Source of the DNA: Telmatobacter bradus | Lineage (GTDB): Bacteria > Acidobacteriota > Terriglobia > Terriglobales > Acidobacteriaceae | Assembly (NCBI RefSeq): GCF_048629425.1 | Contig: NZ_CP184532.1 | Span: 413,398-445,397 of the forward strand | DNA: 32,000 bases | Direction of reading: 5' to 3' | Shown: positions 10,679 through 32,000 of the stretch, piece after piece | How the letters are laid out: the number at the start of each line of letters is the position of its first letter | Position numbering within the stretch: the stretch's first letter is position 1 | The notes under the pieces: generated by a model | Database searches by the model: none | What the model saw: the letters and a program-made list of their open reading frames with translations, nothing else | Told to the model about the DNA's origin: nothing | Made by a program: the position numbers and the translations under genes

Positions 10679-10710
10679 TTGGCCCCATTTGATGCTCTGA
10701 GTTGGCCCCA
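10679..10710. repeat. IS21 left-end multiple terminal repeats
   Basis: TTGGCCCCA at 10679-10687 and 10702-10710, spacing 23 nt. Confidence 0.85.
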
Positions 10711-10789
10711 CCTGGGGCAGAGCCCGTTATCTTGTTTCGGGGTAATATTCCCCGGAAACGAGGACGGCTTGGCCACAAGGAGGAGCAAG

Positions 10790-12370
10790 GTGGAGCTATA
10801 CGAGCAGATCCGGCGGGAGTACGAGCATGGCGCCGGGACGATCCGCGCGGTAGCGCGGAAGTTGGGAGTACATCGACGGGAGGTGCGCCAAGCCTTGGCC
10901 AGCGCGCTGCCTCCAGAGCGGAAGAAGCCGCAGCGGGAGCGGCCCAAGCTGGGACCGGCAGTTCCGTTCATCGACGCGATTCTCGAAGCGGACCGCAAGG
11001 CGCCGCGCAAGCAGCGGCATACCGCGCATCGCATTTGGATGCGGCTGCGGAAAGAGATGCCGGAGATTGTCGTCGGCGAGTCCACGGTGCGCGAGTATGT
11101 GTGCGAGCGCAGGCAGGCGATGGGGCTTCTGAAGCATCAGGTCTTCATCGCGCAGTCCTATCACTTTGGCGACGAAGCGCAGGTGGATTGGTACGAGATC
11201 CAGGCCGAGTTCGATGGCCAGCCGCGCAAGGTCTACATCTTCTGCATGCGCTCGATGGCCTCGGGAGCGGCCTTTCACCGGGCCTATCCGCACGCCACGC
11301 AACAGGCATTTCTAGAAGCCCACGAGTTGGCGTTTCACTGGTTTGGTGGGGTCTTTCATACTCTCAGGTTCGACAACCTGACCTCGGCGGTGAAGAAGAT
11401 TCTGCGCGGCTATCAGCGGGAAGAGACCACGCGCTTCATCGCTTTCCGCTCGCACTGGGGCTTTCAGGCAGAGTTCTGCACGCCGGGCGAGGGCCACGAA
11501 AAGGGTGGCGTCGAAAACGAAAACGGGCAGTACCGGCGCAACTACATGGTCCCCGTGCCGAAGGTGCGCAACCTGGAAGAGTTGAACCAGCTACTGGCCA
11601 CGGGAGCCGTAGAGGAGCAGGCGCGTCTGATCACTGGTCGCAGCCTGTCGATCGGCGCATTGATGCTGGCCGAGCGCGAGCATCTGCTTCCGCTGGCCAC
11701 CGAAGGCTTCGATCTGGCCGCGCTGCACTTTCCTCATGTGAACCAGAGCGGCTGCGTCAAGGTGTTGACCAACTTCTATTCGACGCCGTTGCCGGTGGGA
11801 ACCAGGGCGGCCGCCAAGGTCTACTCGGCTTACGTGGAGATCTGGCACGATGGGCATTGCGTGGCGCGGCATGAACGCTGCTACGAGCGCCATCAACAGG
11901 TGCTGGAACTGGACCATTATCTGGATGTGTTCGAGAGGAAGCCGGGGGCGCTGGCCGGATCCACGGCTCTGGAGCAGTGCCGGACACAGGGTCGCTGGCC
12001 TGCCAGTTATGATCGCTTCTGGTCCATCGTCAGCGAACGGGAAGACCGTCAGGCCGGAACGCGGACGATGATCGAGGTTCTGTTGCTCAGCCGCACCTGT
12101 GGCGCTGGCCGCGTTCGCCAGGCGGTGGAAGAAGCGCTGGCGATGGGCGCTTCCAGCCTGAGCGCGATCCGCTATCTGCTCAGCGTGGACTGCCGGCCAG
12201 CAACGGCAGAAGCGCTGGCTGTGGAGGTCGGCGAATTGCACCGCTATGACCGTCCGCAACCCAGCATGGAAGCCTATGAACAACTGCGGCCGAACTGGAC
12301 TGAGCCTCCACAGACAGACTCAAGTTCCCGGATTGCAGACTGGCCGGTGGCGACGGAGGTGGTCCAGTGA
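10790..12370 (+). CDS. istA: IS21-family transposase IstA
   Basis: N-terminal HTH ([21 protein letters not shown]), [54 protein letters not shown] 10790 preceded by AGGAGG. Confidence 0.93.
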
Positions 12371-13137
12371 GCACACCCCAGCCGATTGAACAGGCCGCCA
12401 TTCAGCAGTATGCCCGTCAACTCTATCTGACCACCGTGGCCGACCAGTTTGCCCGTCTGGCCGAAGACGCCGTCCGCAAAAAGCAATCGCATTTGAGTTA
12501 TCTGGAGGCGCTGCTCGGCGCCGAGGTCGAGGAACGTGAGCGCCGAGCCGTGCTCCGGCGCATCAAGGAGGCCCACTTCCCGGCCGTCAAGACGCTTGAG
12601 GAGTTCGATTTTCAAGCGGCACCGCACATCTCCGCGGCGCTGATAAAAAAGCTCAGCGAGGGCGAGTATCTCGAACGCAAGGAACCAGTGATTTTGTTAG
12701 GGGAAACGGGCACGGGTAAAAGTCACTTGGCCGTCGCTCTGGCCGTCGCCGCTTGCCGCCAACGCAAGCGGGTGCGCTTCACCACAGCGGCGGAGCTGGT
12801 GACGGAGATGATCGAAGCCCAGAGCCAACTGCAACTGACGCGGATGCGCAACCGCTGGATGCGCTACGACCTTGTCGTCCTTGACGAACTTGGCTACGTC
12901 GTCATGCCGGACGCCGCGGCGGAGTTGCTCTTCCAGGTGATCGCCGGCCGCGCCGAGCAGGCGGCTCTGATCGTAACAACGAACTTGCCATTTTCCGAGT
13001 GGCCCACCAAGATCCCCAACGCACGGCTGTGCAAGGCGATGCTCGATCGCCTGACGGATCGCGCTCACATCATCGAGACCGGAACAGAGAGCTACCGGTT
13101 CCGCAGAACCATGGCTAGAAAAGCAGGTAGGGCATGA
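12367..13137 (+). CDS. istB: IS21-family helper ATPase IstB
   Basis: [89 protein letters not shown]; ATGA-type overlap with istA. Confidence 0.95.
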
Positions 13138-13640: not shown

Positions 13641-14113
13641 AGGGCGAGATCAAAACTCGCTCCCGGCGGAATGTGGTTCAGGCGCGCAAATTCTCCGATC
13701 TGATCGAGGCTTCTTTACGGCGCTATCAGAACCAGGCAATTGAAACTGCACAAGTGATTGAGGAATTGATCGGCCTGGCAAGGAAACTGAATGAGGCTTT
13801 ACGGCGCGGTGAACAGCTTGGGCTGAATGAAGATGAACTAGCCTTCTACGATGCCTTGGAGGTCAACGACAGCGCCGTACAGGTGTTGGGGGATACATCC
13901 CTACGGGCTATTGCCAAAGAACTCGTCGAAAATGTTCGAAAGAACACGACCATCGACTGGACACAGAGGGAGAACGTCCAAGCCAAACTCCGGGTAATCG
14001 TCAAGCGCATTCTGAAAAAGTACGGCTATCCACCAGACAAGCAGGAGAAGGCAACCCAGACCGTATTGGAGCAGGCCGAAGTACTGTCCGAAGGATGGGC
14101 AGTATCGCTCTAA
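13641..14113 (+). pseudogene. hsdR: hsdR C-terminal part, displaced by IS21
   Basis: [72 protein letters not shown]..., typical HsdR C-terminal helical region; in frame with 9136-10660 once IS21 plus one TSD copy are removed. Confidence 0.9.
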
Positions 14114-14189
14114 ACCCAATTCAGTTTGAATAGCATGATGGGTAGACCAAATGTGAACTATGTTATTGGGTCTGCGCAAAATGATCGTA

Positions 14190-15227
14190 AGTGGGGTAGC
14201 TGCCTTAGTACAGTAGCCCCTACAGGTTGTGTTTTGCGGCTATTTGGCTGGCTCTTGAAGGGCGAAACCTCGTGGGCTGTGTTACGGCGGCATTTTCCAG
14301 CAAGCGATAGAAGAGCATTCCCCGTCGGCGCGATTTCCTGCGGTTGAAGCGAAAGGCAAACTCGTCCAGGTATGCATCCAGATGCGTGGCGGTAACCGAA
14401 CCTTGATGTGTTCCCAGCAGCCAGCGTTTCAGCCGCGATGCAATCTTATGGACACCCGGCATGACCACATGCGCCGGATCGCCGCTACTGGAGATACTGA
14501 CGGCATGGTGCTTGTGGCCTTCTTTTGCCAACCCCGCATAGCCCTTCCAGCCATCGGTGCACACCTGTGATCCCGGCTCAATCGCGAACTGCACAAAGGG
14601 AATCAGACTACGCGAGGAGGCATCCGCAACCCGCTTCAGCCGTACCCGCCCGAAGCCTATCGGGGAAAGCACTTCGATCGCGATGGCCACGATAAACTTA
14701 CGCTCCGCGCCGCGTCCGCGTGTGCCCTGCTCGATTCCCCCCACGTAGGTTTCGTCCACCTCGACTGTGCCTTGGAGTCGCTCGCGGCCAGGACGCACCA
14801 TGGCTGTCCGCAACTTGCGCAGCATTGTCCAGGCCGTCTGATAGCTGCCCAGGCCGAGAAGTCGCTGTAGACCCAACGCGCTGACTCCATATTTTTGGTT
14901 GGTCATGAACCAGATAGCGGTAAACCAGTCGGCCAGCGGTACGCGGCTGCGGTCGAAGATCGTTCCTGCCGTTACAGACACTTTGCGAGCACAGCCAGCA
15001 CAGGTCCAGCGCCCATCGGACAAGCGCCAGCCCTTCTCACTGGAGCATTTTGGACAATGAAAACCGTTTGGCCAACGGAGCCGCTCCAGGTAGCCAATGC
15101 AGGCTTGTTCATCGGGGAACCAAGCGCGAAACTGTTGCCATGTGCCCGGATAATCAAGCCCCAAATCGGGTTTTGCCTCGGATACCACTACATATAGATC
15201 CTACTGTACTCAGGCAGCTACCCCACT
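14190..15227 (-). mobile_element. IS1595-family insertion sequence (1038 bp)
   Basis: Near-perfect ~27-bp terminal IRs AGTGGGGTAGCTGCCTtAGTACAGTAG / CTACTGTACTcAGGCAGCTACCCCACT; 8-bp TSD TGATCGTA at 14182-14189 and 15228-15235. Confidence 0.93.
14220..15188 (-). CDS. IS1595-family (ISXO2-like) transposase
   Basis: N-terminal zinc-binding CPKCSSEKGW...CAGC; GTVEVDETYVGG; VCTDGWKGYAGL; TATHLDAYLDEFAFRFNRRKSR. Confidence 0.93.
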   Translation of the reverse strand: MVSEAKPDLGLDYPGTWQQFRAWFPDEQACIGYLERLRWPNGFHCPKCSSEKGWRLSDGRWTCAGCARKVSVTAGTIFDRSRVPLADWFTAIWFMTNQKYGVSALGLQRLLGLGSYQTAWTMLRKLRTAMVRPGRERLQGTVEVDETYVGGIEQGTRGRGAERKFIVAIAIEVLSPIGFGRVRLKRVADASSRSLIPFVQFAIEPGSQVCTDGWKGYAGLAKEGHKHHAVSISSSGDPAHVVMPGVHKIASRLKRWLLGTHQGSVTATHLDAYLDEFAFRFNRRKSRRRGMLFYRLLENAAVTQPTRFRPSRASQIAAKHNL

Positions 15228-15245
15228 TGATCGTATACATGTCAA

Positions 15246-15842
15246 TCAGGCTACCCGCAGATGGACGCCTCGTTTTACCTGTGTACCTGGGACTTCCTCA
15301 AAGCGGCTCACCGCTTCCTTGATCGCATCGCTGTTCGGTCTGTCGTCGCGGATGCAGCTTGCCAATGCTTTAGAGGTGTCTTCTGAAAGGGATGCAACGA
15401 CCAACTGCCAGAGGCGTCCTGGAATGCGAAGTTCCAACTCACGGAAAGTCGTCGGAACCTGAGTCGCGTCCGTTATCTCGACTGAATCCTGACTGTTCTT
15501 CTGTAGCCGCAGCGTGAACTCCTTTCCTTCGATCTTCCTGAGCCCGCGTGCCGCCAAGAAGTAGAGCACCATATTCCGAGTACTGACGCCCTTTGCTTCG
15601 GCGGTGCGCGCGCGTTTCTGGAAGTGTTCTGCCTGCTGGCGGCAGTATTTCAGCCGGTTGTCCATCAGGGTAAGGAACCGCCCGATCCTGTCGACCTTTT
15701 GGCTTTCTGCCTCGCAGAACTGCCGAAATCGTTCGAGCAACTCGGAAGAGGCCGTACCGTTCTCCTCCACCTCTTCCTCGATCTGATCGAGCATCGAGTC
15801 GAGTTCGCGGTCGATCTCAAAGAGTGTGCTGCCATCGGTCAT
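15246..15842 (-). CDS. Siphovirus Gp157-like protein
   Basis: TLFEIDRELDSMLDQIEEEVEENG...DNRLKYCRQQAEHFQKRARTAEAKGVSTRNMVLYFLAARGLRKIEGKEFTLRLQKN layout of the Gp157 family. Confidence 0.7.
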   Translation of the reverse strand: MTDGSTLFEIDRELDSMLDQIEEEVEENGTASSELLERFRQFCEAESQKVDRIGRFLTLMDNRLKYCRQQAEHFQKRARTAEAKGVSTRNMVLYFLAARGLRKIEGKEFTLRLQKNSQDSVEITDATQVPTTFRELELRIPGRLWQLVVASLSEDTSKALASCIRDDRPNSDAIKEAVSRFEEVPGTQVKRGVHLRVA

Positions 15843-15886
15843 TGAAGTCCTCCATAGAGTTTGTATCTGGCAGGGTGATAGCGTGG

Positions 15887-16345
15887 CTACGCAGCCATGG
15901 GCAAACTGTTTGCTTGAGTGCGCGCTGCGCGGTAGGCTAGTGCGTCGGCGCGTGATTGGATCGGATGGCCGCCGTGCCCTCTGATCCATCGCCAGCGAAT
16001 TGTTCGCAGTTCGTTAAGTCGGAGCAACTCGCGCCACAGATCCTGGTGCTGCAATTCAAAGCCACGGCTGTTGCGCCAGCCAAACTGCTGCCAACGAAAA
16101 ACCAGGAACCGCATTCCGTCGATCAGCAACTCCGAGTCAGAGCGCAGTTCGATTCGCGCGCCGGTCGGTGTTAGGCGCAGGGCCTCAACCGCAGCGCGTA
16201 GTTCCATTTCGGAGACGGTTGACCGCGGAACCGATCCGGCGATCTCCTGCCGCTTTGTCCCGTGGATCACGATAGCTGCCCAGCCGGCTGGACCGGGGTT
16301 GCCGATGGCCGAGCCATCGGTGAAAATGAAAAACTGCTTGTTCAT
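15887..16345 (-). CDS. rnhA: Ribonuclease HI-like
   Basis: FIFTDGSAIGNPGPAGWAAI, SEMELRAAVEAL, LRSDSELLIDGM, GHGGHPIQSRADALA retain the RNase H acidic residues. Confidence 0.85.
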   Translation of the reverse strand: MNKQFFIFTDGSAIGNPGPAGWAAIVIHGTKRQEIAGSVPRSTVSEMELRAAVEALRLTPTGARIELRSDSELLIDGMRFLVFRWQQFGWRNSRGFELQHQDLWRELLRLNELRTIRWRWIRGHGGHPIQSRADALAYRAARTQANSLPMAA

Positions 16346-16424
16346 GGGGTGCTCCGGGCGGGTCGCTTCTCCGCAACGGATGAATGGGACGCTGGTTCCT
16401 CTTGTCACTGAGCGATAATATTTC

Positions 16425-17216
16425 ATGCAGATTTCTCCACATTGTTATGCCGTGACCGGGCTCGGATACTTCTCTCCGTGGTGCGTCAATGCCGGCTTTG
16501 TGGCAGGCGATACCACCACGCTCATCATCGACACCGGCACAAACTGGATGGCGGCGCAGACGATTCACGGCTACGCTTGCGCGGTTCGTCCCGGCAATCG
16601 AATCCTGGCTGTGAACACCGAGAAGCACTTCGATCATGTCGGCGGCAATGGCTTCTTTCGCGACCTCGGAATAGACATCTACGGACACGCCGAGAATCAG
16701 CGAACCGCCGAGGAGTTTGCGGCCGAGATTGCCGTGTTCAACGATTCCACTCTCGACCGCCAGCGCCGCGAGCGCCAGGAAGCCCATGCCTTCTTCCATC
16801 GCACGGAGTTGACCGCGCCGAACAAGAAGCTCGGCGAAGGAACCGTCTTCGATCTGGGCGGCGTAACTGCGGAGGTGCTCTTCACGCCGGGACACACGCG
16901 CACCAACCTCTCCATCTGGATTCCTCAGGAGCGCGTACTTTATACGGGCGATTGCGTGGTGAGCCTGTACCGGCCGAATCTAGAGGCGGGGAGCAGCGAA
17001 GACTGGCGTCTTTGGCTTGCCTCGCTCGACCGGATCGAAGGCCTGCGCCCGGCGTTTGTGCTCGGCGGGCACGGCAATCTACTGAGCGCGGCCGAGCTGA
17101 CCACGGCCATCGAGATCATCCGCGGCGATCTCCGCGAAGCCATTGCGCAGGGTCTGTCGCCCCATCAGCAATTTTGCAAACAGAATCCAGATGGAACAAA
17201 GGCCGACTACTTGTAG
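16425..17216 (+). CDS. MBL-fold metallo-hydrolase with atypical first metal motif
   Basis: LIIDTGTN, NTEKHFDHVGGNG, VLFTPGHTRTNLSIWIPQERVLYTGDCVV, VLGGHGNLL. Confidence 0.85.
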   Translation: MQISPHCYAVTGLGYFSPWCVNAGFVAGDTTTLIIDTGTNWMAAQTIHGYACAVRPGNRILAVNTEKHFDHVGGNGFFRDLGIDIYGHAENQRTAEEFAAEIAVFNDSTLDRQRRERQEAHAFFHRTELTAPNKKLGEGTVFDLGGVTAEVLFTPGHTRTNLSIWIPQERVLYTGDCVVSLYRPNLEAGSSEDWRLWLASLDRIEGLRPAFVLGGHGNLLSAAELTTAIEIIRGDLREAIAQGLSPHQQFCKQNPDGTKADYL

Positions 17217-17236: not shown

Positions 17237-18445
17237 CTACGCCGCTTGCATGGGAACAACGCTGCCGAAGGGCGCATGACGGCCGCCGGTTGAGGCCCAG
17301 AGCACGGGATAGTATGGAGCTTCGTCGGGAAATGTCCCGTAGAGGTCGGTCAGAAAGACCAGCGTCTGCGGTTGAATTCCATGCTCCCTCAGCCAGTCGA
17401 AGCACGGACCGAAGTCAGTTCCTCCGCCGCCAACGGGATTGAGATGAACGGTCTCCCCGGCTTGATAGGTCTCCACTTTGTGTACCTCAGTGTCGAAGTA
17501 CAGGACGTGAACGCACTGTGGCCGTTGGCCTTCGAGGATCGAGCAAACCTCAGCTTCAAAGAGACGCAACAACCGACCATTCACCGAGCCTGAGCAATCG
17601 ACAGCGATGGCAATCTCTCCGACGCCCTCGCGCACGACTCCAGGCAGATAGAGTCCGTTCCAGATGTGACGGCGGTTGGGCCGCATCCAACTCGAATCGG
17701 CAGGGATAGTATCGGACCAGAGCCGGCGCAACAGTTCACGCCAGTCTACTGTTGCCTCTGCGGCTCCTTCGAGAGTGCGGGCCAGACCCGCAGGAGCCTT
17801 GCCGGCTTGCTTCGAGAGCGTGACTGCTTGGTTGACGGCAACGCTCCACTCTCGCGCCTGCTCTTCAACACTGGGTGTTTCGTCGTTCGGCAGAGGTGCA
17901 TCAAGAACCTGGCCGATGCCGCCCTCCGTCACTGGCGCAGTCGGCTCATCGGTGCTGCCTTGCTTTTCTGGCGTTTCGCCCGCGCCAGTTCCGGCACCGT
18001 TATTTGAGCTGTTCTGGCCGCCAGACTGCGGCTGTGCTTCTGCATCGCGCAGGTTGTAAATCTGTTCAGCACTCATGCCACGGAAGCGGTGATCGACAAG
18101 AACGCCATCCGGCAGACTGAGGCCAGCGTCGAGCAGCAGTGGATTGATGGCGTAATCGCACGCCTCATTCCACCTCTTTGAATCGCGCCCGGAACGCCGC
18201 ACATGATGCTGGAGCGCGGGGTGCATGACCTCGTGGGCCAACACCCCGGCCAGCGTTGCCGAGTTCAGTGTATCGACGAACTCAGGGTTGTAGTAGAGCG
18301 ACACGCCATCCGTCGCCATGGTTGGAATCGACCGCTGTTCGCGCCCCTTCAAGCGAAACAAGAGCGAGCCAAAGAATGGATGATCCAACAGAAGCGTAGT
18401 CCGCGCCTTCTGAATACGAATGGATGCCGGTGTCTCATGTCTCAT
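17237..18445 (-). CDS. DUF2201-type putative metallopeptidase with VWA-like domain
   Basis: LAGVLAHEVMHPALQHH (HExxH) N-terminally; IAIAVDCSGSVNGRLLRLF (MIDAS-like DxSxS) and GGGGTDFGPCFDWL C-terminally. Confidence 0.82.
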   Translation of the reverse strand: MRHETPASIRIQKARTTLLLDHPFFGSLLFRLKGREQRSIPTMATDGVSLYYNPEFVDTLNSATLAGVLAHEVMHPALQHHVRRSGRDSKRWNEACDYAINPLLLDAGLSLPDGVLVDHRFRGMSAEQIYNLRDAEAQPQSGGQNSSNNGAGTGAGETPEKQGSTDEPTAPVTEGGIGQVLDAPLPNDETPSVEEQAREWSVAVNQAVTLSKQAGKAPAGLARTLEGAAEATVDWRELLRRLWSDTIPADSSWMRPNRRHIWNGLYLPGVVREGVGEIAIAVDCSGSVNGRLLRLFEAEVCSILEGQRPQCVHVLYFDTEVHKVETYQAGETVHLNPVGGGGTDFGPCFDWLREHGIQPQTLVFLTDLYGTFPDEAPYYPVLWASTGGRHAPFGSVVPMQAA

Positions 18446-19386
18446 GCCGCCGCGGGTGCCTCCATGTACGCAGACATACGGGAGAGGATGTCATCGACCG
18501 TTGGAGCGTCTGGCGCCTCCTCCGGCACGCTGGCTTCGCGATCACGCAGAACGCTATCGATCTCAGCGACAATCTCCGCGGCATCGTTTGCCGTTGCCAC
18601 GCGCAGCAGGTCGTGCTTCTTGAGGTCCTGCGCCGTAAAGCCGCACAGCCGCTGCCTGATCTGATCGGCGAACCGGTTCAGATCTGCGTCACCATTCACG
18701 TTCAGGCGCGGCAGCAACTCCACCAGATCGAAGACATTTGTGACCATCGTCGCGTGGAAGCGGGACTCCGGCTCATTCAAGCGGTCCACCATGTGCGAAA
18801 CCACATCCCTGAGCCGCTTCCACAAATCTTCGGTGCCGCGCGTCAGAGATTCCCGAACATTGGCGTCGATCTCGCGGGCGACACGCGCCTGCTCTTCGGC
18901 CGACATCTGTACGCGAAAGTCGTTGCCAGTCGGGATAGGCAAGATCTCCAGCTTCACGCCGAACTTCTTGCCCAGTTTGTCGGCGGCGGGATAGTCTTCC
19001 TCACGAAACAGGCCGTTCAGCTCCGGACGCACCTGCTCGATGTACTGCGGATAGACCTGAAGGAAGCTCTCCACGCCTTGCTCAAAGCTGGCCTCGAACT
19101 CGCGCATCCTAGCAGTCAAATCGAAATAGAGATTCGACGGTAACAGGCGAAAGCCCTCATCGGACCACGGCAACGTGATCTTGTAGAAGTACTGGCGCAC
19201 CTGCCCAGCCAGCGTGCGCAGTTCATCGAGTTTGTCGGCGCCACGCAGCAACTGCTTGTTGTAGCGGCCCGCGCCCTGGTGCGCTCCGTGTTGGTCGGCA
19301 ACGTCGCGGCTGATCTTGCGGTCGTGTTTGATGGCCGTCCAAATGCTGATATGGACGGCGGCGAGCATTGCGCGTTCAGTAATCAT
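18442..19386 (-). CDS. DUF3150-like protein
   Basis: 314 aa, helical, between MoxR ATPase and VWA gene with 4-nt overlaps on both sides; family call from gene context and general sequence character. Confidence 0.5.
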   Translation of the reverse strand: MITERAMLAAVHISIWTAIKHDRKISRDVADQHGAHQGAGRYNKQLLRGADKLDELRTLAGQVRQYFYKITLPWSDEGFRLLPSNLYFDLTARMREFEASFEQGVESFLQVYPQYIEQVRPELNGLFREEDYPAADKLGKKFGVKLEILPIPTGNDFRVQMSAEEQARVAREIDANVRESLTRGTEDLWKRLRDVVSHMVDRLNEPESRFHATMVTNVFDLVELLPRLNVNGDADLNRFADQIRQRLCGFTAQDLKKHDLLRVATANDAAEIVAEIDSVLRDREASVPEEAPDAPTVDDILSRMSAYMEAPAAA

Positions 19387-20393
19387 CGAACTACCTCCCT
19401 ATGTTCCACTCCGAAGCGAACGAAATCCGGCGTGTGGGTGATGGCGGTGTCCCGCGCCGCAGCATCGCGCATCGCCATGACGCGCATTTCGGTCGGCATA
19501 CGGTTCAGATACTTGAGTCCTCTGGCCACCGAGTTGTCAGTCATGGCCCGGCCAAGTGCCGTCGCAATTGCGATCTGCGCCGAGGTCTCCGCCGGGAGGG
19601 GAGCCGTCTCCGGGTTGAGCAGAATTTCGTCGATTGACGGCAACTGCCGAAAGAGCCGCAAGAATGCAATCAACTCCGCCGCCGCCGCAGGCCCTACCGT
19701 TCCGTCGAGCAACTGCGCCTCGAACTCGCTCGCGCCAGAAAGGAAGGTAGTCTTCTGCCGGTTCGCAATGCCGCGTAGAACATTGGAGGCCATCTCCCAG
19801 GATCGGGGAGTGGGCCAGGCATTGGCGTCCGAGGTCGCATCGGCGGTATGCAGCAGGTCAGGCTTGAAGCGGAGAAACGCGATAATCTCCGGCCGCACGC
19901 CCGCGCCCACGGCCCATTTGCACCAGTCGTTGAGGTCTGCTTCGAGGTCAAGATGAACAAACCGATTCCGCAACGGACGCGGCATCGAGAAATGCACACC
20001 CCGCTCCGAGGCCGGATTGCCGGCGGCAATAACTACCCAGCCGTCAGGCAAAACGTACTCTCCGAGTTTGCGGTCGAGCACCAGCTGGTAGCAGCCGGCC
20101 TGCGTCATCTGCGGAGCCGAGGTCAGCTCGTCGAGAAACAGAATGCCTTTCCCGGCGGTGGGAAGAAACTTGGGTGGCACCCACTCGGTCTGGTCCTCTT
20201 TGATGCGCGGCAGCCCGCGCAGATCGACCGGATCGAGTTGCACGGCGCGAACGTCAAGAAAATCAAAGTCGAGATCGTCCGCAACTTGTGCGACAATCTG
20301 CGACTTGCCAACGCCGCACGCGCCCCAGATATGCAGAGGCACACGTTCGCCGATCAGCGCATGAAGCGCCTCGTAAAGCTTGGATGGTTTCAT
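19383..20393 (-). CDS. MoxR-family AAA+ ATPase
   Basis: LHIWGACGVGKSQIVAQVA (Walker A), KGILFLDELTSAPQMTQAGCYQLVLDRKLGEYVLPDGWVVIAAGNPASERGVHFSMPRPLRNRF. Confidence 0.9.
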   Translation of the reverse strand: MKPSKLYEALHALIGERVPLHIWGACGVGKSQIVAQVADDLDFDFLDVRAVQLDPVDLRGLPRIKEDQTEWVPPKFLPTAGKGILFLDELTSAPQMTQAGCYQLVLDRKLGEYVLPDGWVVIAAGNPASERGVHFSMPRPLRNRFVHLDLEADLNDWCKWAVGAGVRPEIIAFLRFKPDLLHTADATSDANAWPTPRSWEMASNVLRGIANRQKTTFLSGASEFEAQLLDGTVGPAAAAELIAFLRLFRQLPSIDEILLNPETAPLPAETSAQIAIATALGRAMTDNSVARGLKYLNRMPTEMRVMAMRDAAARDTAITHTPDFVRFGVEHREVVR

Positions 20394-24096: not shown

Positions 24097-24390
24097 TCAG
24101 GCCACGTCATCCAGTTCTTCGGTCTCTTCGATTGGCTCATCGTCGTCAACCTCCGCAAACCCGGGTTCTTCGTCCGATTCTGCAGGCGCGACGGTGGTTG
24201 TGGCAGCCGGTGCTGGCATATCGAATAGGCTTGCGGGCTTCTGGGGTGCGGACTTCGATGGCTCAGTGGACTTGGCTGTCGGAGAATACTGAGTGACTTC
24301 TGTATTCGGCTGCGTTGTCTTGGTCGGCGTCTTCGACTTTGTGCGCGCCTCGGCCTGGGCATCCTTGGAAGCCGCATCCATCTCGGCCAT
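24097..24390 (-). pseudogene. Partial duplicate of the PRTRC system protein E gene (3' part)
   Basis: MDAASKDAQAEARTKSKTPTKTTQPNTEVTQYSPTAKSTEPSKSAPQKPASLFDMPAPAA...EEPGFAEVDDDEPIEETEELDDVA closely matches the C-terminus of 26379-26915. Confidence 0.85.
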
Positions 24391-24437
24391 GGCCTCCTCC
24401 AGAATGTCCTCATCTGCAGATGGCAGTCAACGAGACT

Positions 24438-25810: not shown

Positions 25811-26026
25811 CCCGCTCTCAACCAAAGACATAAAGGCTACAAGGCTATAGCTCTCAGAGCCTTTATGTTTATTGTGGAGGACTCGCTTGTTCGCTTTGGA
25901 CGCACATGGCCACGATGGTCAATCCAGCTCAGACCTCCGCACACCACGGAACTACAAACGTGATAGCACACAAAGCCTCAATCCAAGTTTTGATGTGTCA
26001 ACGTGCATGAAGCAGAGGACGATGAT

Positions 26027-26341
26027 ATGCCACAGTTCGGGTCACCTTTTTCGGAATTGGCGAACGGTAGAAAACTCACGGACGAAGAACTGATCAGAGC
26101 GATTCGGTTTATGGTCGCCTCCGAGTATGAAGCAACTCAGATGTATATGCAGCTTGCAGAGTCAACTGAAAACAAACTCGCCGTGGCGGTGCTCAAGGAC
26201 ATAGCGGACGAGGAGCGTGTACACGCAGGAGAGTTCTTGAAGCTGCTGTACACCCTTGCTCCTGATGAAGAGGCACTCTATGCCAAGGGTGCTGGAGAAG
26301 TAGCTGAAATCGCAAAATCGCAACTTCAGCATACAAAGTAG
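26027..26341 (+). CDS. Ferritin-like/rubrerythrin-type small protein (encapsulated-ferritin-like)
   Basis: ELIRAIRFMVASEYEATQMYMQLAESTENKLAVAVLKDIADEERVHAGEFLKLLYTLAPDEEALYAKGA retains E...ExxH ferritin-like signature. Confidence 0.75.
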   Translation: MPQFGSPFSELANGRKLTDEELIRAIRFMVASEYEATQMYMQLAESTENKLAVAVLKDIADEERVHAGEFLKLLYTLAPDEEALYAKGAGEVAEIAKSQLQHTK

Positions 26342-26378: not shown

Positions 26379-26915
26379 TTAGGCCGCGTCATCCAGTTCT
26401 TCGCTCTCATCGATTGGCTCATCGTCGTCAACCTCTGCAAATCCAAGTTCTTCTTCCGACTCGTTTTGCAAAGTTGTGTCTGTGGCCACTGGTGACGGCA
26501 TATCGAAGAGGCTTGCAGGCTTCTGTTGTGCGGGCTTCGCTGGCTCGGCGGGCTTGGCGGTCGGAACGTATTGAGTGACTTCCGTATTCGGCGGCGCTGT
26601 CTTGGTCGGCGTCTTGGACTTAGCGCGCGCCTCGGCCTGGGCAGCCTTGGAAGCAGCATCCATCTCGGCCTTGACCTTCTCCAGGGTGTTCTTCATCTGA
26701 AGATGGGAGCCGACAAAGCTGATGATGGTCGTGGACAACTCGGCGTCCAGATCTTCGGCAGTGCCGGTCACGCTGAGCGGGGTGGTGAGAGCATCATTGT
26801 CGCCGTCTTTGAGCTTCTTCGGCACAATGTTCACCCGAATCTGATCTGCATCAACCAGCGTGACCGTGAGCAAAACCGCGCGGTCACGTAGAACTGGAAC
26901 AAGTTCTTTGAACAT
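26379..26915 (-). CDS. PRTRC system protein E
   Basis: MFKELVPVLRDRAVLLTVTLVDADQIRVNIVPKKLKDGDNDALTTPLSVTGTAEDLDAEL... in PRTRC gene context. Confidence 0.8.
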   Translation of the reverse strand: MFKELVPVLRDRAVLLTVTLVDADQIRVNIVPKKLKDGDNDALTTPLSVTGTAEDLDAELSTTIISFVGSHLQMKNTLEKVKAEMDAASKAAQAEARAKSKTPTKTAPPNTEVTQYVPTAKPAEPAKPAQQKPASLFDMPSPVATDTTLQNESEEELGFAEVDDDEPIDESEELDDAA

Positions 26916-26929
26916 GATTACTTCTCCTC

Positions 26930-27265
26930 TCATGGGTTCCGATATGTGGTTGGTAGTCGCTTTCTCGTGGGCTTCTTGAGTTCCGGTTCATCCCACAGCA
27001 TGGTGTACTGCTGCCCCAAGGCTATGTTTTCGACAAAAGCCGCCGCGTCGTTTTTGCGCTGCCACAAAAGCCGATAGAGCGTATTGACGGCCGATTTCAT
27101 CATGGCCTTCATCTCCTCGTCGGAGATGTGGGATACAGCAGGATTTCCACTGCAAACCGTGCACGGTTTCCCTGCGTGCAAAGCTTCAATGGGGCCGTTG
27201 CGAAAGGCCAGTGCAACCATCGCTTTTGCTTCGATCGCAAGAGCATGGTCGAGAGTCACTTCCAT
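26930..27265 (-). CDS. Hypothetical 111-aa protein within PRTRC cassette
   Basis: MEVTLDHALAIEAKAMVALAFRNGPIEALHAGKPCTVCSG...SHISDEEMKAMMKSAVNTLYRLL; start preceded by GGAGG on the minus strand. Confidence 0.7.
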   Translation of the reverse strand: MEVTLDHALAIEAKAMVALAFRNGPIEALHAGKPCTVCSGNPAVSHISDEEMKAMMKSAVNTLYRLLWQRKNDAAAFVENIALGQQYTMLWDEPELKKPTRKRLPTTYRNP

Positions 27266-27314
27266 GGAGAGCCTCCGATACTCTCCAACATACATCCTCC
27301 ACGGGAATGACGCA

Positions 27315-28136
27315 TCAATGCCTTTTGAATGATTTTTCCTCATGCCGGTAACGGCGCATCGTCTTCGACCAAAGCTTCGGATCAACGGGCAACGGACTTA
27401 TGAGTCCAGACTGCGCATTAAAGAAGCCGCCGTGGTGCGTTAGTTTTCCATAGCGAAAGAGACGCGCCAGCATGGCCAGTGCACTCGACGCCAAAGTCTG
27501 GTTGATAAATGGCTCTTGACGGTCCAGTGCCTCAACGGCAGAACAACTGGGCAGCGGATCTTCGCCAGCCTCAGCGTCGATGATCTCTGGATACAGTTCA
27601 CTGACTGTGCGCAACCGTGCGGCCTTCCTACGATTGCGCGCATTCAATGGCTGGCCGAGAACGAATTGGCCACTGGCCGCGTTGTTGCCGAGATCGAACC
27701 AATACGCAGTGCGGTTCCTGGCTTTGGTCAGTGCGCGCGCAATAATGCTTCGCGCCGCTCTGGTGTCCACGCATCCAATCAGTAGATCGATGGACCTGTC
27801 ATTGATCCGGTCGAAGGTGTGCTCGCCGAAGTAAGTCGGTTCGGCCCGCCACCGTGTTCCCCAAAATAGGTTGATGCGATTGACGAGGACAGTAGCTTTG
27901 TTCTGCCCGATGTCGGAGACCGAGAATGGTTGGCGCACACAGTTCGTCTCAGAGACGGTATCGGCATCCATCATGACCACTTCCAGCCCCGATGACCGGC
28001 CCCAGACCCGCATCGCCTGGTCGAGATAGGGCAGGCCCATCACGATGGCGCTGCCGGTCCCGCCCGCGCCGACAACCAGTACGCGCACCGGCTTTTGGCC
28101 CAACAGATCGCTTGGAATCGTGTGCTCGATGCGCAT
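27315..28136 (-). CDS. PRTRC system ThiF family (E1-like) protein
   Basis: VLVVGAGGTGSAIVMGL (ATP-binding), MMDADTVSETNCVRQPFSVSDIGQNKA (E1 motif), IGCVDTRAAR, and a later PLPSCS cysteine. Confidence 0.92.
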   Translation of the reverse strand: MRIEHTIPSDLLGQKPVRVLVVGAGGTGSAIVMGLPYLDQAMRVWGRSSGLEVVMMDADTVSETNCVRQPFSVSDIGQNKATVLVNRINLFWGTRWRAEPTYFGEHTFDRINDRSIDLLIGCVDTRAARSIIARALTKARNRTAYWFDLGNNAASGQFVLGQPLNARNRRKAARLRTVSELYPEIIDAEAGEDPLPSCSAVEALDRQEPFINQTLASSALAMLARLFRYGKLTHHGGFFNAQSGLISPLPVDPKLWSKTMRRYRHEEKSFKRH

Positions 28137-28137
28137 A

Positions 28138-28845
28138 TCATCCTCTCTCTCCACGCACGAACTGCGTGAGCGTCTGCGGAAGGACAATGAGCGTTTCGAG
28201 TGGGAACTTCTGGTGCTTGCCAGTCAGACCATTCCATAGCCCATCAAATCCGCCCTCATGGCGTGTCAGGCGGCCTACATTGGCGTGTGTGAAGGCGCTC
28301 TCGTAGAAGCCGCGCTCCCAGGCTGGAATAGCGGCTACCGAGGCCGAGTCCGGGCGCCGCATCGTGCCTGTGCAGACGCGCCCGTCGTCCGAGAGATTCC
28401 AGAAGGGCGGGACGGCGAGTCTTGTTGAGCAATCTGGCCGCTTATTCTCAGTAAGCGCCCGAATGATGAGTTCTCCATTCGATACCTTCCACACTAGAGG
28501 AGGCTGCGAAAAGATGCGCCCGTTCAGCTCCGCCGCTTTGCCTTCGGAGTTCTCATAGAACATCTGGCGGCGCCGCGCAGGAACCCACCAGGCGATCATG
28601 CGGTCCGCCTTGGCAAGTACGTTGGCCGGCAGCACCTCGGCCTGCACGCTGCCGCTAAGGGATCGCGTCAGAGACTCGATGAATGCTACAGTGAGCGGTT
28701 GCGCCGGACCGAGCGTGGGCGGCGCATCCTTGCGTGCGGTCACGTCGTGGCGGGTGATGAAACTGCTTTGGCGGTCGCGATAAATCAGCAGCGCCTCATG
28801 CAGCTCGAAGCGATGGTTCTCCCCGATCGATAGATGTACCTGCAT
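28138..28845 (-). CDS. PRTRC system protein B (E2-like)
   Basis: VPPFWNLSDDGRVCTGTMRRP and YESAFTHANV; 1-nt gap to ThiF gene. Confidence 0.87.
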   Translation of the reverse strand: MQVHLSIGENHRFELHEALLIYRDRQSSFITRHDVTARKDAPPTLGPAQPLTVAFIESLTRSLSGSVQAEVLPANVLAKADRMIAWWVPARRRQMFYENSEGKAAELNGRIFSQPPLVWKVSNGELIIRALTENKRPDCSTRLAVPPFWNLSDDGRVCTGTMRRPDSASVAAIPAWERGFYESAFTHANVGRLTRHEGGFDGLWNGLTGKHQKFPLETLIVLPQTLTQFVRGERG

Positions 28846-29800
28846 CGCGCTTCTCCCATTCCAGGATTTCCTCGACCAATTCAAAGAGCGCGCAGTTAAG
28901 CGCAATAAAGCGATCCACGATCCGAATAGCATGACGAACCTGCTCCGGTTGGCGCGGCGAAAAGACAACGCACACGGTCGGCTCGGCGGTGCCTTCCATC
29001 ATGGACTGGCCCTCTTCGTCGAAGCAGGCGGTAATGGCATCATGCTCTTTGAAAGCGACAAGCAGCGCCGGCAACGGTGGATCGTCGTAGTAGCCGAGTT
29101 CGAGGTACTCCCGCGATTGCTTAAGTGAAAGCCGCGACAGGCACTGAATGCCCCGCAACCGCTCAAACCAAGAACTGAATTTGCCATTGCGAAACCTGCG
29201 CAAGAGATCGCGGTCCTGTGCTTTCCAATCCGGAGATTCGCGTTTCTGCGTTTTTCGGATGTACTCCGGCAGCGCCTTCTCCACTTCTGGAAATTCATAC
29301 TGCCCTTGGTTCTCTGCGTCGTCTTCGGCGGCATAGTCGCGCATCCGCTCTTCGTACATCAGCGCATTGTCGTGGTTGTAGATCCACATCACGCGATAAA
29401 GTGCGAAGGTCAGTGCCCAATAGAACGCCGCGCCCAGCCCCTCGGCCTCAGCTTCCAGCGCATCAAGCGCCGGACCAATCCTGAAGTACCCCGATCCGCC
29501 ACACTCGACGGTGACAACCAGTTGCCCGCTTTCGAGTTCCGCATCGCTTCCCGCGCGGCCTAGTTGATCGCTTACTTCAAGGTGATACTCGACATTGCGT
29601 TGCAGCAGATCGCGACGCTCAGGGCCAATCGCGCTCATCATGGCGTGCTGCGCAAATAGAAGCACGTTTCCGCCAGATTTCTTCCAGGTCTCCGTAGTTC
29701 CCAATCCCTCGCACACCAGCGCCGCGCATAGTTCATAGACCAGTTCAGCATTGACCTCATGGTTATACTCGGCGCGAACATCGGCGAGCAATGGCAATGC
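28796..29800 (-). CDS. PRTRC system protein F (5' end uncertain)
   Basis: AEYNHEVNAELVYELCAALVCEGLGTTETWKKSGG...FYWALTFALYRVMWIYNHDNALMYEERMRDYAA... in PRTRC context. Track ORF extends to 30052 but its first ~80 codons read like an incorrect frame. Confidence 0.75.
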   Translation of the reverse strand, partial: ALPLLADVRAEYNHEVNAELVYELCAALVCEGLGTTETWKKSGGNVLLFAQHAMMSAIGPERRDLLQRNVEYHLEVSDQLGRAGSDAELESGQLVVTVECGGSGYFRIGPALDALEAEAEGLGAAFYWALTFALYRVMWIYNHDNALMYEERMRDYAAEDDAENQGQYEFPEVEKALPEYIRKTQKRESPDWKAQDRDLLRRFRNGKFSSWFERLRGIQCLSRLSLKQSREYLELGYYDDPPLPALLVAFKEHDAITACFDEEGQSMMEGTAEPTVCVVFSPRQPEQVRHAIRIVDRFIALNCALFELVEEILEWEKRDAGTSIDRGEPSLRAA

Positions 29801-29826
29801 CTGTCCGAAGGCTGGTGCAAGCGTTG

Positions 29827-30042
29827 CTACCCCAGTGGCGGAAGCAGTTCCGGCGGTGTCGGGAGCCGATAACTTCCCGATGCCACATATTTCCTGATCG
29901 CTTCTGATACGGCTTGCGCGAGATCGCAGGATTCTTTGCATTGAAGATGCCTCGCCAGTATGAGGTTTGCCTCTGGCGGCGGTTCTGCGGCCTTCTTGAG
30001 GAACGCCGCCACCAATTCTTCTTGCGACAATGCGGGCGTGGG
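29827..30042 (-). CDS. Hypothetical ~71-aa protein in alternate frame between PRTRC-C and PRTRC-F
   Basis: PTPALSQEELVAAFLKKAAEPPPEANLILARHLQCKESCDLAQAVSEAIRKYVASGSYRLPTPPELLPPLG; candidate GTG start with upstream GAAGGGG; much more protein-like than the overlapping frame. Confidence 0.5.
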   Translation of the reverse strand, partial: PTPALSQEELVAAFLKKAAEPPPEANLILARHLQCKESCDLAQAVSEAIRKYVASGSYRLPTPPELLPPLG

Positions 30043-30048
30043 CACGGT

Positions 30049-30261
30049 TCACCCCTTCGAGCCAATCGCTCGACTGAAGGTGTAACGCAGCGTGGTCCCG
30101 GTATCTTCCGGACCGGTGAGGGTTGCAGTCGCAATTTCAGGAAATTGTGGAGTGAGGAGGTCGCGAACCTGCTCGACGCTCATCTGCGGCGCCGGATCGG
30201 GAATGCGAATGCCGTTGTAGTGAAACTCACGCAACAGGACTTCTGCTTTGAGAGTAGCCAT
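30049..30261 (-). CDS. PRTRC system protein C (ubiquitin-like beta-grasp candidate)
   Basis: LLREFHYNGIRIPDPAPQMSVEQVRDLLTPQFPEIATATLTGPEDTGTTLRYTFSRAIGSKG, 70 aa ending in glycine. Confidence 0.87.
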   Translation of the reverse strand: MATLKAEVLLREFHYNGIRIPDPAPQMSVEQVRDLLTPQFPEIATATLTGPEDTGTTLRYTFSRAIGSKG

Positions 30262-30309: not shown

Positions 30310-30837
30310 TCAAAAGAGACTGCCCTGTAGTGGCGTCCTCGTGATTGCGATTTCCTGCGTGGATGCTGGTGAAACCTGTCGTGCCAAGTCCTCATCTGGT
30401 GTTACGTGAACAACCGCTCGATACTTCGCTTCAAGCATCCTGAGCGTCTCGATTTCGCCGGAACGCACAGCCTCGGCAGCGCGGAGTTCATAGCGAGCAA
30501 GATAGTTGCGTTTGCGAATCTCCTGCTGAATCGCGCGCTCAACGTCGCAAAACATGTATTCTGGATCGCCCCAGCACGGCCATTGAAGCGAGTGACGAAG
30601 AAATTCAAGCCGGTCAGTATCGGATGCAAACCAAGTGTCATAGAACGTTGCCAAGTTGTAGTGCGCACTATTGCCAAAGCACATTGAAAGGCGGTTATAG
30701 AAGCTCTTGGAAAATGCTGTGCGCGCCCACTCTGATTCGATGAAGTGCAAGAAGGCGTTGCCAAAATCAGCTTTGTCCTGAGCCGATGAAAACTTCGTGG
30801 GCACAAACTCAGAGGGATGAAACGGTCCTTTCGGCAT
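30310..30837 (-). CDS. Hypothetical 175-aa protein between the helicase and the PRTRC cassette
   Basis: Co-directional ORF with plausible composition (…FLHFIESEWARTAFSKSFYNRLSMCFGNSAHYNLATFYDTWF…). Confidence 0.7.
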   Translation of the reverse strand: MPKGPFHPSEFVPTKFSSAQDKADFGNAFLHFIESEWARTAFSKSFYNRLSMCFGNSAHYNLATFYDTWFASDTDRLEFLRHSLQWPCWGDPEYMFCDVERAIQQEIRKRNYLARYELRAAEAVRSGEIETLRMLEAKYRAVVHVTPDEDLARQVSPASTQEIAITRTPLQGSLF

Positions 30838-30998: not shown

Positions 30999-32000
30999 TC
31001 AGCCGAAGAGGCTGAGCTGCACGGCCTGCCCTGTGTCCGTGGACCAAGGCGAGGGCTTCTTGCGCACCTTCACGCCCGCTTGAGATTCAACAAGATGAAT
31101 GCCAGCGCGTTCGGATGCTGGACCTACCGGTTCGGTGACTGGCAAATCCAAGACAGGATTGTCGTCTTCCACTGCCTTCAACGCAGGCGGCTGTGGCAGC
31201 ACCCGCTCCCGTTCTCTTTCTAACTCGCGCCATGCGGCGTCTGCTGTTTCCCCAACTCCGGCCTTCTCGACCAACTCGCGCGCCATGGCGCTCATCAGGT
31301 CTTCGTCAGTGTCGAGTGATTGCAGACCTTCACCAGAGAACTTGCCCTCCATCATCAGCGCGACGAGCATTTTCTTGCCCATCAATCGGAGGCAGGTCTC
31401 TTGCATCGTGCCCGTATAAGTGACGAACTTCACGCGCACCGCGTGCCGCTGGCCAATGCGCCAGGAGCGGCGGCTCGCCTGACGCAACGTATGCAGCGAG
31501 TAGCCGGTCTCGTAGAAATAGAGTGTCGAAAAGGCTAACAGGTCGAGGCCAGTCTCCACCAGTTTCGGGTGGCAGATCACGACTTCAACTCCGCCTTTCA
31601 GTTGCCGCTCGTACCAATCTTCGCGCTTGTCTGTGGAAACCGAAGAGCGCAACACGGCAACCCGGAATCCTGCCTGCCTGAGCACAGACTCCAGCCGCAG
31701 CGTAACATCCTTCTCACCCGTGTAAGTCGCATAGACCTGGCAGCGCCGCCCCTGCCTGAGTTCCTCACGCACGTCGGCGATGAGCGCGCGTTCTTTCGCG
31801 TAGAGGCAGTCCTCCTTCAAGTTCTGAGGCGTCGTCACCAGGAACTTCACATACTCTTTGGTCTCCGGGTCAAAGGCCCGCGCCCAAATGTCTTCAAAGC
31901 CGTAAGGATGGTCGGGATAGAGCAGCAACGTATTGAGCAGTATGCTCATCAGGCTCTTGTTGCCGCGATGCGCTCGGATCGCAGCCCGGATGTCCTCTTC
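30999..32000 (-). CDS. SF2/SNF2-type helicase, C-terminal part (runs off window)
   Basis: RRCQVYATYTGEKDVTLRLESVL, VEVVICHPKLVETGLDLLAFSTLYFYETGYSLHTLRQASRRSWRIGQRHAVRVKFVTYTGTMQETCLRLMGKK (motifs V/VI); frame stays open to 32000. Confidence 0.85.
   Translation of the reverse strand, partial: EEDIRAAIRAHRGNKSLMSILLNTLLLYPDHPYGFEDIWARAFDPETKEYVKFLVTTPQNLKEDCLYAKERALIADVREELRQGRRCQVYATYTGEKDVTLRLESVLRQAGFRVAVLRSSVSTDKREDWYERQLKGGVEVVICHPKLVETGLDLLAFSTLYFYETGYSLHTLRQASRRSWRIGQRHAVRVKFVTYTGTMQETCLRLMGKKMLVALMMEGKFSGEGLQSLDTDEDLMSAMARELVEKAGVGETADAAWRELERERERVLPQPPALKAVEDDNPVLDLPVTEPVGPASERAGIHLVESQAGVKVRKKPSPWSTDTGQAVQLSLFG

Follow-up and report, generated by a model that had tools for sequence, protein, structure and literature searches.

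The window analysed here, a stretch of 32,000 nt of the Telmatobacter bradus genome (contig NZ_CP184532.1, positions 413,398 to 445,397), contains a cassette of PRTRC genes coding for a small protein of the prokaryotic ubiquitin family (protein C), an E1-like enzyme (ThiF), an E2-like protein (B), a protein in the position of F, and protein E. We found that this cassette is a reduced form of PRTRC, which lacks the genes for the JAB peptidase (protein A) and for ParB, and that this form is real and well conserved. It almost certainly belongs to the lineage of operon type 6d, for which a ubiquitin-like system was predicted by Iyer, Burroughs and Aravind in 2006 (Genome Biol, PMC1779556, Table 1 row 6d). 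The pathway itself was thus predicted in 2006; what is new is the variant, with neither A nor ParB, with another gene order and with a protein C that ends at glycine.

An earlier note on this DNA, which had been made from the sequence, read C as a ubiquitin-like protein (Ubl), ThiF as its E1 and B as an E2-like enzyme with Cys158 in the active site. This assignment is supported, since Cys158 of B and Gly70 of C turned out to be invariant and C belongs to the Prok_Ub family. The designation as an "undescribed bacterial ubiquitin-like pathway" has to be given up, because the operon was described as type 6d (PMC1779556) and the Pfam families of C and B already bear the names Prok_Ub (PF14454) and Prok-E2_D (PF14460).

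Family membership and conservation of the cassette

Every gene, motif and coordinate named in the earlier note was found on the minus strand, in the interval 26379-30261. The gene order is C-(72-aa gene)-F-B-ThiF-(111-aa gene)-E, and all genes point in the same direction and lie close together: F and B overlap by approximately 50 nt, B and ThiF are separated by 1 nt, and the 111-aa gene and E by 14 nt. Four of the proteins match PRTRC family models with scores far above chance level and above the NCBIfam curated thresholds, which we used as cut-offs: ThiF with 265 bits (TIGR03736 PRTRC_ThiF, cut-off 144.75, full-length model covered), B with 174 bits (TIGR03737 PRTRC_B, cut-off 131.45), C with 85.8 bits (TIGR03738 PRTRC_C, cut-off 45.95) and E with 62.6 bits (TIGR03741 PRTRC_E, cut-off 37.95). 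In addition, C matches Prok_Ub ("Prokaryotic Ubiquitin") at E=3.6e-20, and B matches Prok-E2_D ("Prokaryotic E2 family D") at E=1.4e-37.

Five components define operon type 6d (PMC1779556): a small Ub-like protein with a conserved C-terminal glycine and a predicted beta-grasp fold, proteins resembling E1 and E2, a peptidase of the JAB type, and an alpha-helical protein that diverges rapidly. Its E2-like protein lacks the histidine of the HPN motif and has a conserved cysteine with a histidine downstream of it. Among the species listed for type 6d is R. metallidurans (PMC1779556), and plasmid pMOL28 of this organism (Cupriavidus metallidurans CH34) bears a canonical PRTRC cassette.

By alignment of ThiF we recovered 80 genome loci, all of them from Acidobacteriaceae, including the isolates Tunturiibacter psychrotolerans and Silvibacterium bohemicum. 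All have the gene order of the window, with ThiF identities of 70-97%. A search for near-identical DNA in plasmids gave no match.

The earlier note had advised to look for PRTRC-A (JAB, TIGR03735) and ParB (TIGR03734) beyond the end of the window. Using tblastn and purpose-built hidden Markov models (HMMs), which recovered all positive controls, we detected neither of them, whether in the window or in 82 syntenic loci searched with 10-kb flanks. The HMM of the A protein still detects distant JABs in IMG/VR contigs (E=1e-16 to 1e-21). We also considered the 111-aa protein, the 175-aa protein encoded upstream of C, or the F-position protein as a diverged JAB, and rejected this on the basis of the hhalign comparisons (P=0.44-0.82).

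On plasmids, tblastn with B as the query found 210 records, 138 of which are conjugative or mobilizable. The order on proteobacterial plasmids is ParB-E-C-F-B-A-ThiF. A cassette of the Bacteroidales type with the order E-C-F-like-B-ThiF, without A or ParB, is present on a Parabacteroides plasmid (locus L088), and related A-less cassettes were found in five IMG/VR contigs (L092, L094, L095, L097, L099). Therefore, the JAB-less form is not confined to Acidobacteria. Other A-less cassettes are those of Shewanella, P. fluorescens and Aeromonas.

Some of the acidobacterial genomes harbour two or three copies of the cassette, for example L037 and L072 on one contig. Frameshifts or split matches in the C, F, B, SNF2 or MoxR gene were seen in L037, L030, L054, L066, L069 and other loci, from which we conclude that some copies are decaying and others are intact.

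The C terminus of protein C and the presence of JAB

Protein C consists of 70 aa and, as the earlier note had stated, ends with glycine: the sequence RAIGSKG is directly followed by the stop codon, and the Gly70 codon is GGG at 30052-30054. In the acidobacterial copies, 54 of 55 end with RAIG[ST]KG directly before the stop, and the 55th is frameshifted. Across several phyla (Proteobacteria, Bacteroidota, Acidobacteriota) Gly70 is invariant (13/13 sequences) and Lys69 nearly so. The protein thus ends with KG and not with GG.

Comparison of A-less and A-containing cassettes revealed a difference at this end. In all ten A-less lineages, C ends exactly at the glycine, while in four of six A-containing cassettes a tail follows KG. 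The tail is AYAQI in pMOL28, SYA in Paraburkholderia and approximately 60 residues long in Xanthomonas; in Sphingobium and in L096, A is present and C has no tail. Counted by lineage, the difference (4/6 versus 0/10) corresponds to p about 0.008 in the Fisher exact test, on a small and phylogenetically uncorrected sample. The fourth of the cassettes with a tail, in a 239-kb contig (L100, IMGVR_UViG_2936514734_000001), has a different arrangement. There, four tandem Prok_Ub repeats are encoded at 4480-5130, each with AGTKG followed by A, or in the last repeat by N and the stop codon. Approximately 3.4 kb downstream of the gene for this poly-Ubl precursor follow genes for a PRTRC-A-like JAB and for a ThiF.

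A peptidase with a cleavage site after KG would be in line with this pattern. Since the C terminus covaries with the presence of JAB, it points to the glycine as the end that is activated, and because the variant in the window has no JAB peptidase, its C is encoded ready-made, ending at Gly. Probably, the cassette itself cannot remove the tag. The link between the presence of JAB and the tails of C is a new detail beyond the family definitions.

Conserved residues of ThiF and B

ThiF carries the E1 motifs that had been pointed out before, VVGAGGTGS (GxGGxG) and MDADTVSETNCVRQ (DxDxVxxxNxxRQ), together with cysteines at positions 66, 122 and 198. Its gene starts with ATG preceded by GAGAGG. In 20 diverse PRTRC ThiFs the residues G23, G25, G26, G28, D57, N65, R68, Q69, K80, D124 and C198 are invariant, and the adenylation site of a thioester-forming E1 (GxGGxG, Asp, NxxRQ, Lys and the Mg-binding Asp) is intact in all of them. 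Cys198 (codon 27543-27545) lies in the context [PS]SC[SA] in all 20 proteins and, judged from this conservation, is a candidate catalytic residue. The closest relative of ThiF among PDB sequences is the E1 domain of CBASS Cap2 (E=0.004).

Protein B contains FWNLSDDGRVCTG, with Cys158 encoded by TGC at 28372-28374 as the earlier note had it. In 1.8 billion cluster representatives we found 1904 relatives of B, and conservation was scored on 114 full-length sequences with 33-52% identity. The earlier note had made its reading depend on the conservation of this cysteine, and Cys158 is invariant (114/114) down to approximately 33% identity. So are Asn150, Gly160, Pro165 and Pro137, and His187 is conserved in 93% of the sequences. 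Asn150 (codon 28396-28398) is located eight residues upstream of Cys158, which is the spacing of the HPN asparagine and the catalytic cysteine in E2 enzymes; the motif in B is [YF][WFY]N instead of HPN. Together with His187 (codon 28285-28287), these residues form the candidate active site.

A relationship of B to E2 enzymes was also suggested by hhalign. Against four human E2s, B gave P=0.0012 (controls 0.23-0.62), and this alignment pairs N150 and C158 with N77 and C85 of UBE2D2 and the RP of B with the YP of E2s. No similarity to BilB of E. aridi was found by the same program (P=0.35). The AlphaFold2 model of B is confident, with a predicted local distance difference test (pLDDT) score of 91 and a predicted template modelling (TM) score of 0.80. 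From residue 103 on, it consists of a helix, four strands, a loop with the cysteine, and helices; this order fits a UBC-like topology. Thus, the catalytic candidates fixed by conservation are Gly70 in C, Cys198 in ThiF, and Asn150, Cys158 and His187 in B.

The F-position protein and an overlapping small gene

Between C and F we found a gene for a 72-aa protein (...EELVAAFLKKAAEPPPEANLILARHLQCKES...LPTPPELLPPLG), which was absent from the earlier note. The first 113 nt of F are shared with this gene, but read in a different frame. The length of 72 aa is kept in most acidobacterial loci, and the apparent 107-nt spacer between C and F, which is constant in length and shows coding periodicity, is a part of this open reading frame (ORF). 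In 45 distinct loci, the entropies at the three codon positions of the small frame amount to 0.82/0.81/1.35 upstream of the F start and to 0.89/0.69/1.36 inside the overlap with F. These values indicate that within the overlap coding selection acts on the small frame only, and the periodicity shifts to the F frame right after the stop codon of the 72-aa ORF.

At codons 31, 32 and 35-38 of the small gene the synonymous sites are frozen, which preserves a GAGG, located 8 nt upstream of an ATG, as well as this ATG and the first codons of F. The ATG is kept in 42 of the 45 loci, always as NNA TGC. We therefore conclude that F starts at 29941 and has its own ribosome-binding site (GAGG) inside the 72-aa gene. 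Two other possibilities were considered for the start of F. Coupling to the stop codon of C (GTGA, resulting in a 418-aa form) is possible in 10 of 53 loci only, and the ATG at 29941 is preferred. A -1 frameshift that would fuse the 72-aa ORF to F is unlikely, since the stop codon is not accompanied by a conserved slippery site and F has a conserved Shine-Dalgarno sequence and ATG.

Counterparts of the small ORF exist in the same place and relative frame in pMOL28, Paraburkholderia and Parabacteroides, where they end at the point at which the PRTRC_F model begins; similar small ORFs are found in Shewanella and Sphingobium. Their coordinates in other loci are 7754-7951 in L004, 7735-7950 in L005, 1784-1963 in L088 and 5715-5939 in L090. 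In the databases, the 72-aa protein corresponds to 106 clusters annotated as "hypothetical protein", and it has no Pfam domain and no match in PADLOC or PHROGs. The gene is outside the PRTRC family definitions and is a new detail for this family.

The label F, used in the earlier note, could not be upheld on the basis of the family model. The protein has no match to TIGR03742 PRTRC_F at E values up to 10, while F of pMOL28 reaches 286 bits, and no other Pfam or NCBIfam model matches within the same limit. A weak match to canonical PRTRC F was obtained by hhalign (P=0.0044 over 238 colinear columns, controls 0.12-0.82). The AlphaFold2 model is mostly helical and of low confidence (pLDDT 50), and the Foldseek matches obtained with it are noise. 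In loci in which ThiF is 70-97% identical, the identity of the F-position protein is 48-97%, which makes it a candidate for the rapidly diverging helical component of type 6d.

Organization of the locus and neighbouring genes

The coordinates of the cassette genes and of the two genes upstream of C are given in Table 1. A scan for promoters and terminators gave matches no more numerous than in shuffled sequence, and PHROGs gave zero matches for all cassette proteins.

Table 1. Genes of the PRTRC cassette and its upstream neighbours in the window
Feature	Position	Strand	Remarks
PRTRC protein C	30049..30261	-	70 aa; PF14454 (Pfam Prok_Ub) and TIGR03738
Small overlapping gene	29827..30045	-	72 aa from GTG 30045, or 67 aa from TTG 30030
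F-position protein	28796..29941	-	381 aa; F by position, size and weak profile match
PRTRC protein B	28138..28845	-	235 aa; PF14460 (Prok-E2_D) and TIGR03737
PRTRC ThiF	27315..28136	-	273 aa; TIGR03736 and PF00899; single adenylation domain
Accessory 111-aa gene	26930..27265	-	between ThiF and E; no family match
PRTRC protein E	26379..26915	-	178 aa; TIGR03741 and PF19556; end of the cassette
Accessory 175-aa gene	30310..30837	-	between SNF2 helicase and C; no family match
SNF2-like helicase gene, 3' part	30999..32000	-	Helicase_C; gene cut by the window end

In protein E, a conserved N-terminal domain of approximately 100 aa precedes a stretch rich in Lys and Pro, and the tail is acidic. A second copy of the 3' half of the E gene lies 2.28 kb downstream (24099-24410 versus 26381-26692, 84-89% DNA identity); this partial copy contains a 97-aa ORF at 24097-24390. 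Between the two copies there are three ORFs on the plus strand, one of them rubrerythrin/EncFtn-like (26003-26341). The arrangement suggests either that recombination with a second cassette left this fragment or that E received an insertion. The interval between ThiF and E varies from 10 nt to 6.4 kb (L006-L085), showing that this junction is an insertion hotspot.

The two accessory proteins of 111 and 175 aa have no match in NCBIfam, Pfam, PADLOC or PHROGs. The gene for the former, which has the conserved motif AFRNGPIE..HAG.PC..C.G.....HI, is found in 31 of the 71 acidobacterial loci with both ThiF and E, and the gene for the latter in 26 of the 36 loci with both SNF2 and C. Up to base 32000, the SNF2-like helicase of the window aligns with residues 434-766 of the helicase in L001; in relatives this protein has 766 aa. 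In most long acidobacterial loci the SNF2 gene is located upstream of the cassette. A DUF6094 methyltransferase-like gene is another conserved upstream neighbour, and in the two JGI loci with called genes there is a further methyltransferase gene between these two. The SNF2 helicase gene also adjoins PRTRC on Paraburkholderia and Xanthomonas plasmids (L005 1618-4737; L087 1-83). The association of SNF2 with PRTRC thus recurs across phyla.

Downstream of the cassette, at 17237-20393 on the minus strand, the window contains a block of genes for a MoxR-type AAA ATPase, a 314-aa protein and a DUF2201 protein (putative metallopeptidase and VWA); the corresponding block in L001 is at 14026-17179. 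According to our tblastn analysis, many of the longer acidobacterial loci have this block on the downstream side of the cassette, and it is followed by genes for RNase H and a Mu Gam-like Gp157.

At a larger distance, the plus strand of the window carries at 1399-4580 a gene for a SIR2-domain protein (587 aa) followed by one for a short Piwi-domain protein (473 aa), with insertion sequence (IS) transposases on either side. This pair resembles a short prokaryotic Argonaute (short pAgo) defence system. An IS21-type pair, consisting of a Mu-like transposase (10679-12370) and IstB (12367-13137), is located beside an isolated fragment (13673-14113) from the C-terminal end of a type I restriction R subunit, and an IS1595 transposase is encoded at 14220-15188. 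The type I restriction gene appears to be disrupted. McrBC and GmrSD are encoded near the cassette in L001. Taken together, the surroundings of the cassette look like an integrated mobile or conflict/defence island, which points to a cassette that serves a mobile element or functions in inter-genome conflict.

A possible conjugation pathway and its alternatives

Based on the conserved residues, we propose a relay from E1 to E2, by which C would be attached to targets. ThiF would bind ATP and adenylate the free C-terminal Gly70 of C, which would then be held as a thioester on Cys198 of ThiF. From there C would be handed to Cys158 of B, with Asn150 and His187 assisting, and B would attach it to one or several targets via an amino group. 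As conserved partners, E, the F-position protein and the 72-aa protein could act as target selectors, substrates or regulators.

We consider this relay moderately probable, a grading given because B has no significant match in the PDB, the beta-grasp fold of C is a prediction and the model of the F-position protein is unusable. Several results weigh against the proposal. Foldseek with the confident model of B against 350,000 PDB chains, bacterial E2-like proteins included, gave no significant match; the first E2 was Ubc12 (2nvu_C) at rank 31, with E=3.3 and a TM score of 0.21. Searches of PDB sequences with B, both as a single sequence and as an HMM built from it, were equally negative. The profile of C found no match in PDB sequences, nor did hhalign with ubiquitin/NEDD8, ThiS and MoaD; the predicted beta-grasp fold is derived from Pfam membership and published threading. 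The F-position protein is outside its family model, and no target, E3 or deconjugase was identified for the cassette. Finally, PRTRC was called experimentally unknown in the earlier note, and this apparently still holds: our literature searches gave no experimental paper on PRTRC or 6d and no biochemistry on any of their proteins.

The missing structural match raises the question of whether B is an E2 at all. It could be a Cys/His enzyme of another fold, such as an isopeptidase or a transferase, with ThiF alone activating and attaching C in a manner comparable to archaeal SAMP/UbaA, which works without an E2. Cys158, His187 and Asn150 would also suit the triad of a cysteine hydrolase, and in a cassette without JAB another protein might deconjugate. 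However, B is equally present in JAB-containing cassettes, and the Asn-x7-Cys spacing and the profile alignment agree with an E2 active site. The order of secondary structure elements fits UBC, Pfam groups the family with prokaryotic E2s, and a conserved histidine next to the catalytic cysteine is also found in the E2 of Type II Bil. We regard this alternative as quite unlikely, but as a real rival. Far less probable is that C and ThiF are a sulfur-carrier pair like ThiS-ThiF or MoaD-MoeB, in which C would be thiocarboxylated for the synthesis of a small molecule. Such a pair would explain the ThiF-family adenylation domain, its weak matches to NCBIfam ThiF/MoeB models and the small size and terminal glycine of C. 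But the scores against these equivalogs are only 20-34 bits, with cut-offs of 150-650, and the conserved neighbourhood contains no gene for a sulfurtransferase, rhodanese, ThiG, MoaE or biosynthetic enzyme. Moreover, C ends with KG and not GG, the cassette is found on mobile elements, and an E2-like partner with a cysteine has no place in sulfur-carrier pathways. Even more improbable in our opinion is that the cassette is a decaying, non-working remnant left after the loss of ParB and JAB from canonical PRTRC. Two of seven family-defining components are indeed missing, F fails its family model, a second E fragment lies 2.3 kb away and IS elements are abundant in the window. Nevertheless, the gene set and order are intact in the 80 loci, the variation at third codon positions indicates purifying selection, all catalytic residues are kept and C ends precisely at the glycine, as a system without JAB needs. 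JAB-less cassettes also recur in Bacteroidales, Shewanella, Pseudomonas and Aeromonas.

If the chemistry is that of the proposed E1-to-E2 relay, its biological role could be host-protective anti-phage defence, with C being conjugated to a phage protein during infection as in Bil. CBASS type II and Bil were reported to act against phages, and for Bub this was suggested from genomic context. Further, SIR2 with short pAgo and a fragment of a type I restriction system are nearby, McrBC and GmrSD accompany the cassette in L001, and ThiF gave weak matches to E1-E2 models of PADLOC, at E about 1e-5. On the other hand, no PADLOC model fits C, B, F or E, and there is no deubiquitinase (DUB) that could reset the system. 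On canonical plasmids PRTRC is located beside ParB, single-stranded DNA-binding protein, the beta subunit of DNA polymerase III, methylases and SNF2, which looks more like a plasmid establishment region. We regard a defence role as rather unlikely. It is tempting to speculate instead that the JAB-less cassette is a one-way device for Ubl tagging, which is carried by mobile elements for their own benefit and in which F and the 72-aa protein choose the target. We see this as an unlikely possibility. If true, it would mean that a host protein, for instance one with a role in defence or DNA processing, or a partner encoded by the element, for example the SNF2 helicase or protein E, is tagged irreversibly when the element enters or resides in a cell. 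Ubl chemistry would then be used for counter-defence or establishment, the opposite of its use for defence in Bil, CBASS and Bub.

Comparison with known systems

Five types of bacterial operons with E1, E2 and Ubl were defined in 2006 (PMC1779556). Type 6B is CBASS type II with Cap2/Cap3, 6C is Type II Bil and 6E is Bub; for 6A, the anti-phage 6A-MBL system has NCBIfam models. Protein conjugation was reported for 6B (CBASS Cap2) and 6C (Type II Bil), via cysteine thioesters, and for 6E (Bub), via oxyester intermediates. Thus, types 6A, 6B, 6C and 6E are tied to named systems, and 6d (PRTRC) is the type for which we found no experimental work, though it occurs frequently on conjugative plasmids, among them plasmids with NDM. 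The acidobacterial cassette offers a minimal experimental entry to 6d: its Ubl needs no processing, there is no competing deconjugase, and E1 and E2 are small and separate.

With the eukaryotic cascade the cassette would share the logic of adenylation of a terminal glycine and of a relay from the cysteine of E1 to that of E2, and B has Asn-x7-Cys with a preceding motif that corresponds to YP (RP in B). In contrast to eukaryotic enzymes, ThiF has neither UFD nor a separate catalytic cysteine domain, and B lacks the HPN histidine and has an extra N-terminal domain of approximately 100 aa. Furthermore, the cassette has no E3, its Ubl ends with KG and not GG, and Foldseek detects no likeness between B and UBC.

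Like Bub, the cassette is a bacterial operon with E1, E2 and Ubl, which in the case of Bub performs protein conjugation. Bub differs by serine-based oxyester intermediates and by a serine protease as deconjugase, while the E1 and E2 of the window keep invariant cysteines. Among proteins of solved structure, the E1 domain of CBASS Cap2 is the closest sequence relative of ThiF, and, as proposed for the thioester relay of the cassette, its E1-type site activates a protein C terminus. However, Cap2 is a fusion of E2 and E1 which conjugates a cGAS-like enzyme and is paired with the JAB protein Cap3, whereas the window encodes E1 and E2 as two proteins, has a true small Ubl as the substrate and lacks JAB. 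Separate genes for Ubl, E2 and E1 are also a feature of Bil (BilABCD; Type I and II), in which the glycine of the Ubl needs to be exposed for adenylation and, as in B, the catalytic cysteine of E2 has a conserved histidine nearby. The E1 of Bil is composed of several domains, including inactive and active adenylation domains and a CYS domain, and every Bil system comes with a JAB DUB; the E1 of the window is a single domain of 273 aa and has no DUB at its side.

The definition of operon type 6d (PMC1779556) agrees with the window in the Ub-like protein with C-terminal glycine, in the E1-like protein and in the E2-like protein, which has C158 and H187 and no HPN histidine. The definition includes a JAB with a JAB-N domain, which is missing in the window, and the account lists no Acidobacteria and does not mention the small overlapping gene or protein E (PMC1779556). 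From canonical PRTRC (TIGR03734-03742; pMOL28) the cassette differs in the lack of ParB and A, in ThiF following directly after B, and in E, which precedes C in canonical cassettes and has moved from the front to the end. Its F fails TIGR03742, its C has no tail, and it is chromosomal in Acidobacteriaceae, while canonical cassettes are found on proteobacterial plasmids. Nonetheless, C, B, ThiF and E of the window are homologous to their canonical counterparts, with 33-45% identity to the pMOL28 proteins, and the two forms share the core order C-F-B, a small ORF over the 5' end of F, a location in mobile DNA and, on some plasmids, the SNF2 neighbour.

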